From: a virus
Taxonomy: Duplodnaviria > Caudoviricetes
Reading direction: 5' to 3' (one strand)
Virus record (IMG/VR): IMGVR_UViG_3300043434_000734
Span: 96,001 to 160,000 of that record
DNA length: 64,000 nt
The position numbers and the translations under genes were made by a program. The notes under the pieces were generated by a model, which worked only from the letters and a program-made list of their open reading frames with translations, searched no databases and was not told the origin of the DNA. Of the stretch, positions 34,902 through 59,839 are shown one piece after another (within the stretch, counting starts at the first letter, position 1; every line of letters starts with the position of its first letter).

Positions 34902-35972
34902 GTGTTAACTACCTTAGAAAAATATCACAAAGATGGTTTGTTACATAAACAAACACACCCGACTCTTGATTTAACTATTTGGAATTACACCCCAAAAGTT
35001 CAGTATGAAAAATTATGGGATGAAATCACAATACAATGTCGTGGATTGGTAACTAATTCTAATGGTGACATTGTTGCTCGACCATTTAAGAAATTCTTTA
35101 ATTATGAAGAACATAAACCAGAAGAGATACCAAACGAAGAATTTGTTGTTTATGAAAAATTAGACGGTTCATTAGGTATTTTATTTAATTACCAAGGGGA
35201 ATGGATATTGTGCACTCGTGGATCATTCACATCACCCCAAGCAATTAAGGGTAAAGAGATTCTTAATAGACACGATATAAGTGCGTTAAGAAAAGATAAT
35301 ACACTTTTATTTGAAATTATTTATCCTGAAAATAGAATTGTTGTTGATTATGGTAACGAAGAAAAATTAGTGGTAATTGGTGGTATACATACTGAAACCG
35401 GCGATGAAATATCCGATGAAGGTTTATCTTTTTTACAACAAGCTGGGTTTGAAGTTGTAACAACATATAAAACTTGGGGTGAAGGTTATGATTTACTTAA
35501 AGAGGATATAAGTAAAGATAAAGAAGGATATGTAATTCGTTTTAAAAGTGGTTTTCGTATGAAAATCAAAGGAGACGAATATGTAAGACTTCATCGTATT
35601 TTAACAAACATATCTAATAGGGATATATGGGAGTATTTAAAGGACAATAGACCGTTTGATGAATTACTCGAAAAAGTACCTGATGAATTTAACGATTGGG
35701 TTAAAAAAACCGTTAGTGATTTAAGATATGGATGTTACCAATTAAGAGAACGCGCAGGTAAATTACACGATGGTTTTAGATATGGTAAATTTGGAGACAG
35801 AGAGGTCGAACCATCTAAAAAAGAATTTGCGGAATTTGTAATGAAACAACAAGAAGTCCTACACGGTATTATGTTTGCTATGTGGGACGGTAATAATAAA
35901 AAAGTAGACGAAATAATTTGGAAATTAGTGAAACCAAAATATTCAAAACCATTTAAGAAAGATGAAAATTGA
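34902..35972 (+). CDS. RNA ligase (T4 Rnl1-like)
   Basis: CRGLV, ARPFKKFFNY, EKLDGSLG, FEIIYPENRIVV, EGYV, KIK. Confidence 0.92.
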   Translation: MLTTLEKYHKDGLLHKQTHPTLDLTIWNYTPKVQYEKLWDEITIQCRGLVTNSNGDIVARPFKKFFNYEEHKPEEIPNEEFVVYEKLDGSLGILFNYQGEWILCTRGSFTSPQAIKGKEILNRHDISALRKDNTLLFEIIYPENRIVVDYGNEEKLVVIGGIHTETGDEISDEGLSFLQQAGFEVVTTYKTWGEGYDLLKEDISKDKEGYVIRFKSGFRMKIKGDEYVRLHRILTNISNRDIWEYLKDNRPFDELLEKVPDEFNDWVKKTVSDLRYGCYQLRERAGKLHDGFRYGKFGDREVEPSKKEFAEFVMKQQEVLHGIMFAMWDGNNKKVDEIIWKLVKPKYSKPFKKDEN

Positions 35973-47950: not shown

Positions 47951-48023
47951 GGGCCTGATGTCAACGGCAGACCATCTGATTTGCAATCAGAATGAATGGG
48001 TTCGATTCCCACAGCGTCCACCA
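47951..48023 (+). tRNA. tRNA-Ala(TGC), bulged acceptor stem, encoded CCA
   Basis: tctga-tttgcaa-tcaga; G3:U70. Confidence 0.8.
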
Positions 48024-48453: not shown

Positions 48454-48993
48454 ATGAAAGAAGAAATATTAAAATTAAGAAATGAAGGTAAAACATTTAA
48501 CCAAATAAAAGAAATAATAAAATGTTCTAAATCTACAATTTCATATTATTGTAGTGAAGGGCAAAAAGAAAAAACAAAAATTAGAACTAAAAAGAGGAGA
48601 GAAAACATTATAATTGATAAATTAGAAAGATTTAAATATAGAAAATCTAAATCGAATAAAGAACGAATTAGAAAATTCAATAAAAGAGATAATCAAATGG
48701 ATGGATTAGTTAACAAAAAAATAGAAATTACATTCACATTTGAAGATGTTATCAAGAAGTTTGGTTATAGTACTGTTTGTTATCTTTCCGGAGAAAAAAT
48801 AAATTTAAATGAAAACACATACCATTTTGACCATATTTTACCATCAAGTAGAGGTGGTGATAACACATTAGAAAATTTAGGTGTTACACACGAAATTGTA
48901 AATAAAATGAAAGGGGACTTAACACCAAAGGAACTTATTCTTTGGTGTGAAAAAATTTTGAAATATAATGGATATGATGTAAATAAAATTTAA
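48454..48993 (+). mobile_element. HNH homing endonuclease with N-terminal HTH
   Basis: CYLSG...HFDHILPSSRGG.NTLENL...VNKMK. Confidence 0.88.
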
Positions 48994-49558: not shown

Positions 49559-49629
49559 TGCGGGGAGGAAGGTTCCCGACCAGTCTCATAAGCTGTGTCT
49601 CCCGAGTTCGATTCTCGGCCCCGCAACCA
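49559..49629 (+). tRNA. Atypical tRNA-Met(CAT): initiator-like acceptor, short D-arm
   Basis: tgcgggg/ccccgca-acca; ctcataa loop. Confidence 0.7.
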
Positions 49630-50672: not shown

Positions 50673-50760
50673 GGAGAGATGGTAGAGTTGGTCTATTGCA
50701 CCTGACTTGAAATCAGGAGTACTCGTGAGGGTACCGTGGGTTCGAATCCTACTCTCTCCG
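50673..50760 (+). tRNA. tRNA-Ser(TGA)
   Basis: cctga-cttgaaa-tcagg; long variable arm. Confidence 0.95.
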
Positions 50761-50876
50761 CTGTAGAGTTTGCCCGTGGTAACGGTCTGATAAGATACTT
50801 TCAGACTTCTCGCGTCAAAACCCAAAACACTGACCTACTGGTGCTTGGGCTAAATGTAGAAAAAAAACGGGATATT

Positions 50877-50964
50877 GGAGAGATGGCAGAGTTGGTCGAT
50901 TGCGTCAGACTTGAAATCTGAAGAACGGGAAACTGTTCCGTGGGTTCGAATCCTACTCTCTCCG
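50877..50964 (+). tRNA. tRNA-Ser(TGA), second copy
   Basis: tcaga-cttgaaa-tctga; long variable arm. Confidence 0.95.
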
Positions 50965-51063
50965 CGAACCAAAAGTCCAATGGGGAGGATCCACTACACG
51001 ATTAGCAATCGGAAGAGTAGATTAAGACTAAGGTTGCTTGACACTCCGGAAAGACGAGAAAAC

Positions 51064-51202
51064 AATCAAGTAGAGTGGTGGTACACTCACTATGTATGCA
51101 TCGTAAGATGGACGCCTTCTTCCCGCAGAGCACATAGATATGTCGTTTAGTGATATGGAAGAACACGGGAACGATTTGTAGGTTCGAATCCTATCTTGAT
51201 TG
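51064..51202 (+). ncRNA. Oversized tRNA-like RNA 1 (139 nt)
   Basis: Perfect 7-bp acceptor, D-arm and T-arm; 38-nt anticodon loop; 40-nt variable region. Confidence 0.7.
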
Positions 51203-51317: not shown

Positions 51318-51447
51318 GGGAAGGTAGCAGAAATGGAAGATGCGTTATACGAAAGCTACGTATAAGACGCGATGACGGACACAAAAGTACAATGTGTTGA
51401 ACTAAAGATTACGCATCGTTATGGGTTCGATTCCCACTCCTGTCCCA
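51318..51447 (+). ncRNA. Oversized tRNA-like RNA 2 (130 nt)
   Basis: Bulged acceptor, D-arm, 7-bp anticodon-like stem, 55-nt variable domain, T-arm. Confidence 0.6.
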
Positions 51448-56063: not shown

Positions 56064-56870
56064 GGCCGCCTATGGTCGATTAAAATAAACCACGAAAGTG
56101 GGATAAAGTGACGAGTCCTTGGTTGGGACAAGTTGCGGTTTCAGTAATGGAACTTGAGTAGGCAAGTGGAGTATCGTTGAACCTTAAGTACTGAGGGTAA
56201 CACTTTAGGGAAAGTGGTTTGATGACTGAGCAATCCGAGTTGTTTGGTTGAGGTGGGAACACCAATAAGAATAATCCATAGAGTTATTGTGAGAAATATG
56301 GTTATCCGACTATATGATTACGTGATTCAATATGATGGGAATCTTAAAACCGAAAGGTATGGTGAAGTACGAGTGGTGTCGTTATCATCCTTTATTAAAC
56401 TCTACCAAGGGTTTAGTTTTGAAGGGGTCCAAAAATATGGTAGCAGGGATGTTACAGAGAGTAGTTTAGTATCGAGTCGCTCAAAAGGTGGCTTGGCTAG
56501 GTGACGAACCACTACTTTCCAAATTCGGATAACTAAATTTTGTTAATTTTGGTTTAACAACTTAAAATCATACAAGAAAAAGTGTTCGTCAGTCGTTGTA
56601 GACAGGTGGCTACATAGTCGTGAGGGGTTCACGGCCACAAAGGGTCTCAAGCCCAATGTGATTTTTAAAAAAGTTCTCTAAACCCGCAAGGTTGAATCAG
56701 GGAGGCATCTTTGATGAGTAATGAGTATTAAAAGAGTATATAACGACTCAAGGATTGGTTAATCTAATTGACCGCCGCTGATTGGTACTACTCAAAAGGT
56801 AGTGGATATGGGAAGAATCAAATAATGTCCCTAAGTCAATCAAAAAATGGTGTAATCTCAGCCCTTTCTT
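56064..56870 (+). ncRNA. ~800-nt structured RNA, GOLLD-like candidate
   Basis: GC-enriched, no credible ORF, many hairpins, long-range 5'/3' pairing, next to tRNAs. Confidence 0.65.
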
Positions 56871-59435: not shown

Positions 59436-59836
59436 GGGGATGTCTGGTATTGATTTCAGGTATCAGGGATAAATGGCACGTAGTCAGAATTCATCTATGA
59501 CTTAAATCCACGGTGAAACATTTTAGACGGCAACGTTTACAACAATATGGAAATTGCAGGTTTACTTGCAACTTCTAAAGTAGCGGCCTAACCAAGTTAG
59601 CACTACACTCGGGTCGATGTACATATAACCTAGGAACAGAAGTACTTAAGGTGTGATACCACCTAAGAGTGTCAAAGGTCTCGTTCAGAGGGCTACCTTA
59701 AAGTGAACTCGACACAGTTATAGGGAACGATGTTAAAATAGGAACCTTTTATTTGTCTGTTGTGAACTAACAGAATAAACGTGTAGTCATTTATTGTTGA
59801 ACAGGAAAGACACGGGTTCGACTCCCGTCATCTCCA
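59436..59836 (+). ncRNA. ssrA: tmRNA; tag GNVYNNMEIAGLLATSKVAA* (59529-59591)
   Basis: ggggatg/catctcc-a acceptor with G3:U70, T-arm acggg-ttcgact-cccgt, tag ending VAA. Confidence 0.93.
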
Positions 59837-59839
59837 CAT

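Follow-up and report, generated by a model that had tools for sequence, protein, structure and literature searches.

What kind of RNA is encoded where a phage tRNA array is interrupted by a gene that has the two ends of a tRNA and a 38-nt structured region in the place of the anticodon loop? The gene in question (positions 51064–51202, plus strand) is a discrete RNA gene of about 140 nt within the tRNA array of the window, i.e., the whole stretch of 64,000 nt that was analysed (positions 96,001 to 160,000 of the IMG/VR virus record IMGVR_UViG_3300043434_000734). A sequence-only reading of this DNA had offered two explanations, a tRNA mimic that does not decode or a tRNA that bears a novel intron and is resealed by the Rnl1 ligase of the phage, and had set a decayed insertion against both. 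The element is probably a non-decoding RNA built on a tRNA chassis, with a pseudoknotted knob as its working part. Comparison of homologous sequences shows the borders of the gene, its fold, the pseudoknot, the portability of the inner module between frames and the absence of a decoding loop.

The window encodes the major capsid protein gp23, the portal protein gp20 and the large terminase TerL of T4 type, and the phage is for this reason considered T4-like. Related viral contigs are 200–330 kb long and come from freshwater viromes, and DNA of the window is present in lake and freshwater metagenome runs; the window belongs to a T4-like jumbo phage of fresh water. The tRNA array around the element covers ~7 kb and includes 24–25 tRNA genes (ARAGORN and Rfam). 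A gene that resembles tRNA-Ala(UGC) and has its CCA encoded (47951–48020) was found by Rfam only (32 bits), without an ARAGORN call, and alanine is missing from the array if this gene is not counted. The array also contains an HNH endonuclease gene (48454–48993). A short tRNA-like element (49561–49629) combines a 7-bp acceptor stem and a T arm with an encoded CCA, lacks a clear anticodon arm, and matches the Rfam tmRNA model by its two ends only (18 bits). Two tRNA-Ser(UGA) genes (50673–50761 and 50877–50965), 204 nt apart, are 82% identical and have rewritten variable arms. Just downstream of the array lie a GOLLD RNA (56457–56864; 314 bits, Rfam) and a complete tmRNA (59436–59839) with the tag GNVYNNMEIAGLLATSKVAA; relatives also have both.

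Relatives of the element were collected in two ways. The gene of a neighbouring RNaseH-like protein served as an anchor, by which 55 related viral loci were fetched, and further homologs came from DNA-pattern scans of viral contigs and metagenomes. Five of the 55 anchored loci carry a copy that is 83–86% identical to the element of the window, and 50 carry none. In total, 44 loci of viral or metagenome origin carry homologs, the window not counted. These comprise 28 distinct full-length sequences and 22 distinct modules (the inner part that stands in for the anticodon and variable arms), and identity in the insert is 85–100%. The element is single-copy in two whole records, and it is absent from the closest relative (97% complete); this absence, together with that from 50 of the 55 anchored loci, marks it as an accessory, dispensable gene. 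Searches with a model of the module over 1.2 Mb of related loci and three whole viral records revealed no additional diverged copies. An exact 24-mer spanning T arm and acceptor had 0 matches in viral contigs, and a hairpin-only pattern had 58, all new ones being coding or unrelated. In 50,697 phage records, blastn with the region as query matched only tRNA-Ser. The lone match of a pattern scan over genome contigs, in a high-GC Cellulosimicrobium gene, has no pseudoknot complement and was rejected as chance.

The borders of the gene are precise. Homology extends from the first acceptor base to one base past the discriminator, and the flanks are unrelated between loci. In some loci the element abuts a tRNA-Ser or a tRNA-like gene at a spacing of 3–7 nt, as tRNA genes do. 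For example, the order in locus L009 is tRNA-Ser, a gap of 4 nt, the element, a gap of ~6 nt and a second odd RNA, and in locus L015 the element follows 3 nt after a 96-nt tRNA-like gene. Such tRNA-like packing argues for end processing of tRNA type. A sigma-70-like site at 51038–51066 was dismissed, because such sites are fewer than expected by chance and this one overlaps the gene start.

The RNA can be described from its 5' end. The 5' strand of the acceptor stem (AATCAAG, 51064–51070), at which the homology to the 44 loci starts exactly, forms seven of seven possible pairs with 51195–51201; its A2-U71 pair becomes G-U in some family members. It is followed by TA at positions 8–9 (51071–51072), as read from the sequence, where the U at position 8 is not conserved across the family, and by a D arm (GAGT, an 8-nt loop with GG, and ACTC; 51073–51088), the second pair of which changes in a compensatory way from A-U to U-A across homologs. 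In place of the anticodon stem there is a helix, S3, formed by CTATG (51090–51094) and CATAG (51133–51137). Within it lie a hairpin, S4 (CATC-GUAA-GATG, 51099–51110), the 5' strand of a pseudoknot (TTCTTCC, 51117–51123) and a conserved single strand of the form CGCAG(N)nCA (51124–51132). The stem of S4 is invariant in 22 of 22 distinct modules, and its loop is GUAA, GCAA or GAAA, thus a GNRA tetraloop in every module; CGCAG is invariant in every member of the family, including those at loci L136 and L139 (see below).

The second arm of the module occupies the position of a variable arm. Its base is helix S6, formed by GTCGTT (51142–51147) and AACGAT (51170–51175) with one G-U pair, and above it the inner helix S7 (51150–51166; GTG at 51150–51152 and CAC at 51164–51166) closes an 11-nt loop. 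This loop starts with a conserved (G/A)UAU and its last 7 nt are the 3' strand of the pseudoknot (GGAAGAA, 51157–51163). The T arm (GTAGG-TTCGAAT-CCTAT, 51178–51194) has a canonical T loop, and the first pair of its stem is G-U, A-U or G-C among homologs. The gene is completed by the 3' strand of the acceptor stem (CTTGATT) and the discriminator base (51195–51202), which is G at 51202 and A in some members; no CCA is encoded. The acceptor, the TA, the D arm with GG, the stem CTATG/CATAG, the GUAA hairpin and the T arm were all placed correctly by the sequence-only reading. It had also seen a 7-bp stem in the variable region, which exists but is better described as the 6 bp of S6 plus the 3 bp of S7. 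Outside the helices, UAGG, GACG, CGCAG and (G/A)UAU are almost invariant, and ~25 unpaired bases of the knob are invariant. GUAU and CGCAG may come together where the pseudoknot helix ends on one side, and could provide a docking site for the GNRA loop.

Covariation was evaluated over 26 pairs, in an alignment of the 22 distinct modules that was guided by a model. Standard pairing was found in 98.3% of the cells, and it fell to 34–59% when partners were slid by 1–3 columns. Both sides have changed in 12 of the 26 pairs, compared to 3.0 ± 1.1 in shuffled controls, none of which (0 of 500) reached the observed number. Compensatory changes are present in five helices. For example, S3 has a whole extra base pair in locus L066, and reads CTAATG/CATTAG in L136 and CCAACG/CGTTGG in L139; S6 occurs as GTCATT/AATGAT, GTTGTT/AACAAT and GCTGTA/TACAGT; and S7 is GAG/CTC in L136 and GTACT/AGTAC in L139.

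The pseudoknot is a perfect 7-bp complement that joins the 38-nt "anticodon loop" (51117–51123) with the loop of the "variable" arm (51157–51163). Its strands are invariant in the main family (TTCTTCC/GGAAGAA), yet they are rewritten and still perfectly complementary in L136 (TGTACCC/GGGTACA) and in L139 (CCTAATC/GATTAGG). A perfect complement of seven bases arises by chance in 0.002–0.007 per sequence, as estimated from shuffles. Three independent compensating versions, each of them rare (0.2–0.7%) in shuffles, are decisive for the pseudoknot. An alternative pairing, TTCCCG/CGGGAA, was rejected, since its GG changes to AA in homologs without compensation. The minimum free energy of the element is no better than that of shuffled sequences (z = -1.15); a single sequence would thus make a weak case, whereas the comparative data are far beyond chance. 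The structure is under selection. Covariation among homologs, the check that the sequence-only reading had suggested, supports every helix named in it and adds S7 and the 7-bp pseudoknot.

The module is not bound to one frame. In L136 it is carried by another, Leu-like tRNA frame with the acceptor stem AGTCAGG/CCTGACT, a Leu-like D arm and the discriminator A, and this frame scores 34.3 bits against the Rfam tRNA model, above the cut-off of 29. In L139 it forms one domain of a non-tRNA RNA of ~230 nt, which has long-range closing helices, is without a T arm, and matched no Rfam family at E up to 10. To judge from these loci, the module is portable between frames, the non-tRNA case being the single locus L139. 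Its presence in the frames of L136 and L139 indicates that the conserved part is the knob and not a particular tRNA identity. The RNA of L139 lies directly upstream of a small HNH endonuclease gene (L139:1112–1477, minus strand). This gene and the HNH gene inside the tRNA array of the window may have a bearing on RNA gene mobility.

Other tRNA-framed RNAs accompany the family. A second one in the window (51318–51447) starts ~115 nt downstream of the element. Its acceptor stem contains a single bulge, a T arm and a long inner domain are present, and its end resembles a terminator. Conserved counterparts in L009 and L015 differ by compensatory changes, from ttatacg/cgtataa to ccgtat/atacgg and from acaca/tgtgt to actct/agagt. 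Further examples, with a Leu-like D arm, are located at L015:6392–6487 (96 nt) and on the reverse strand of L136 (565–690, 127 nt). Each of these two has its acceptor stem in common with the adjacent module-bearing gene and differs from it in the inner parts. The L136 RNA at 565–690 scores 38.4 bits against the Rfam tRNA model, and a 65-nt insert replaces its anticodon loop.

Tests for membership in known classes gave a consistent picture. ARAGORN, run on the window, did not call the element, and the best hit of the Rfam tRNA model (RF00005) to the short stretch was misregistered or partial (21.2 bits vs. the cut-off of 29). The 7-bp acceptor stem, the D arm and the T arm with its T loop are those of a tRNA, and their pairs are kept in all homologs, but S3 closes a 38-nt region with a hairpin and a pseudoknot strand, and there is no 7-nt loop, no U33 and no anticodon. 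The RNA cannot read codons, because a folded pseudoknot stands where the anticodon should be. No Rfam family was assigned to the element either at the gathering cut-off or at E up to 10, ribozyme, riboswitch and intron families included. YrlA, a bacterial Y RNA, is composed of a tRNA-like domain and a Ro-binding helix formed by the RNA ends; its model (RF02553) had no match at the element, whose ends form the acceptor stem. Coding was ruled out by 1-nt indels between homologs and by the pair-wise compensatory substitutions, and a candidate tag ORF in the window copy (GCA ... TAG) was rejected as it is not kept in homologs.

In the case of introns, ARAGORN in intron mode reads the window copy as a tRNA-Thr(AGU) with a 52-nt intron. 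Across the family it called 3 of 26 members, with the anticodons AGT, GCT and TTA and with intron positions that all differ. No group I or II core was detected (Rfam, E up to 10) in the insert of ~90 nt. Contigs from four metatranscriptome runs of four studies cover the element without interruption, e.g., contig X16 has no mismatch over 50990–51162 and contig X25 covers 51061–51169; these contigs may stem from contaminating DNA, and they give no RNA ends or levels. One contig showed an apparent joint from 51090 to 51173 with a side of 29 nt. It was rejected as a splice, because its 111 unplaced bases less the 29 that match 51173–51201 leave 82, which is the length skipped; judged by its sequence, the contig is a homolog of the same length with a middle that is more than 15% diverged.

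The explanations that would make the element a tRNA, functional or former, fare poorly on this evidence. If part of the insert were removed and the ends sealed, for example by Rnl1, a decoding tRNA would result, and to this may be counted the Thr-AGU parse of the window copy, the resemblance of the 3' part of the element to the variable and T arms of the phage tRNA-Ser, and an Rnl1-type RNA ligase gene in the window. That gene is indeed encoded (34902–35972), as the sequence-only reading had noted, but nothing ties the ligase to the RNA. Such an intron-bearing tRNA is very improbable. The few members parsed disagree on the anticodon; both S6 and the pseudoknot, which covary, span the proposed borders and pair "intron" with "exon"; what would be the anticodon belongs to the 5' strand of S7, another covarying helix; no Rfam family indicates a group I core, and the insert is far too short for one; the RNA contigs, which are assembled contigs only, contain no splice joint; the array already has a tRNA-Thr; and the L139 module does without a tRNA frame altogether. 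A tRNA pseudogene in decay, with insertions of junk, would explain why tRNA finders leave the element uncalled and why its folding energy is no better than that of shuffles. This explanation has next to no probability in view of 44 loci at high insert identity, precise borders and compensatory changes in five helices, and the covariation excludes a decayed insertion. The non-decoding mimic proposed by the sequence-only reading has stood up, as the frame is conserved, an anticodon loop is lacking and selection is strong.

Two other explanations accept a non-decoding RNA and differ in the part that would do the work. The acceptor/T-arm minihelix and the elbow could act as a decoy that soaks up a host factor handling all tRNAs, such as a toxin (one acting on the acceptor end, or a nucleotidyltransferase) or an elbow-reading tRNase of a defence system, with the knob merely blocking decoding and cleavage. 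The strong conservation of the acceptor stem, the T loop and the GG of the D loop is in line with this, as are the use of two different tRNA frames by the module and a conflict-rich setting in which the phage has its own tRNA set, tmRNA and Rnl1 ligase. A decoy of the top half is nonetheless unlikely: the knob is the most conserved part and is found without a tRNA frame in L139, ~25 invariant unpaired bases would be needless for a mere plug, and U8 is not conserved. The sequence-only reading had named tRNases and stringent-response or T-box sensors as candidate decoy targets. Sensing by RelA or T-boxes requires the anticodon loop, as does cleavage by anticodon nucleases; the latter cannot be the target, because the RNA has no such loop. 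Alternatively, the knob could be a small self-cleaving ribozyme or an aptamer for a ligand, perhaps serving as sponge of a small signalling molecule, to which the tRNA frame, or a 5' leader in L139, is just a host. This proposal overlaps with the preferred one, since it names an activity for the knob. It would account for features known from riboswitch aptamers and small ribozymes, namely a compact pseudoknot, a hairpin whose stem is invariant and many unpaired bases that are invariant as well, for the position of the L139 module directly upstream of an ORF start, and for an Rnl1-type ligase in the phage. It is quite unlikely, given that Rfam searches at E up to 10 yielded neither a ribozyme nor a riboswitch, that there is no evident expression platform, with the HNH neighbour in L139 a single case, and that RNA contigs pass through the module uninterrupted. 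The bolder proposal that the knob represents a small functional RNA of a new class (a small ribozyme, or an aptamer or sponge that binds a small molecule, e.g., an immune signalling nucleotide) on an interchangeable tRNA chassis, and that the species 1 RNA of T4 follows the same design principle of two inner arms locked by loop pairing, is rather unlikely.

The reading of the element as a non-decoding RNA with a working knob implies the following course. The RNA would be transcribed together with the neighbouring tRNAs and excised like them, by a cut of RNase P at the 5' acceptor end followed by 3' trimming of tRNA type and probably by addition of CCA. In the fold shown by the comparison, the acceptor, T and D arms are kept and one compact module replaces the anticodon and variable arms. 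This module comprises S3, the invariant GNRA hairpin and the long arm of S6 and S7, with the 7-bp pseudoknot tying the loop of the arm to the strand within S3. From the tRNA frame the RNA would gain defined ends, an L-shaped elbow and resistance to nucleases. The working surface would be the rigid knob with its invariant unpaired UAGG, GACG, CGCAG and GUAU, and the knob would act in trans during infection by binding a putative protein or small-ligand partner.

Stable non-tRNA RNAs in phage tRNA clusters (T4 species 1 and 2) have been known since the 1970s. The family described here offers a fold proven by covariation, a pseudoknot that can be tested, a module with a record of moving from frame to frame and dozens of natural variants, and the question of what such RNAs do is now approachable by compensatory mutants, pull-downs and probing. 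It suggests that a tRNA chassis plus cargo may be a general natural design in large phages. It is also a warning for annotation, as real RNA genes lie in the gaps of phage tRNA arrays and are missed by tRNA finders and Rfam.

Several known RNAs share parts of this design. Class II tRNAs have a 7-bp acceptor stem, a D arm with GG, a T arm and, between the anticodon and T stems, a long additional arm; positions 51158–51193 of the element are 72% identical to 50920–50955 of the phage tRNA-Ser(UGA), and the relative in L136, with its Leu-like D arm, scores above the Rfam cut-off for tRNA. Unlike these tRNAs, the window RNA lacks the 7-nt anticodon loop, U33 and a conserved U8, and its "anticodon loop" is base-paired to its "variable" loop. 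In tmRNA, too, a tRNA-like acceptor/T domain is combined with a large pseudoknotted insert that replaces the anticodon arm. However, the window RNA has U3-A70 where tmRNA has the alanine mark G3-U70, it has no conserved tag frame, the 1-nt indels between homologs breaking the frames, it has one pseudoknot and 140 nt as opposed to ~400 nt, and the Rfam tmRNA model is unmatched at this site. In the engineered tRNA scaffold of Ponchon and Dardel, a foreign structured RNA reportedly replaces the anticodon arm and receives tRNA-like processing and protection. That scaffold is a laboratory design, whereas the window RNA would be a natural one in which the module takes the place of the variable arm as well.

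The closest parallel is found in T4, where rnaC (species 1, 139 nt) and rnaD (species 2, 119 nt) encode tandem small stable RNAs at the end of the tRNA cluster. The function of the species 1 and 2 RNAs is still called unknown (PMC3014915, PMC9697503, PMC12685909). The rnaC RNA has an acceptor-like stem (with A-U to G-C covariation) and a T arm of canonical form, and its two inner arms are long. Both rnaC and the window RNA are ~140 nt long, belong to tRNA clusters of T4 type, stand in tandem with a second odd RNA and have no anticodon, and in both an acceptor-like stem and a canonical T arm frame two long inner arms. They differ in that no sequence similarity connects them (blastn, 50,697 phage records), in that the window RNA has a full D arm where rnaC has none, in that the acceptor stem of rnaC contains U-U mismatches, and in that the GNRA hairpin and proven pseudoknot of the window module were not seen in rnaC. 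Homologs of rnaC are confined to Tevenvirinae of enterobacteria. In T4 rnaC itself (L158, 2909–3047, minus strand), the second arm ends in a 6-nt loop, CGUCAA, that is perfectly complementary to UUGACG, a motif close to the tip of the first arm. Both motifs are invariant in five diverged homologs, and the stem of the second arm covaries, which is suggestive of the same locking principle between loop and arm as in the window pseudoknot. By analogy, the window RNA is best read as a functional counterpart of the T4 species 1 RNA and not as a member of its family.
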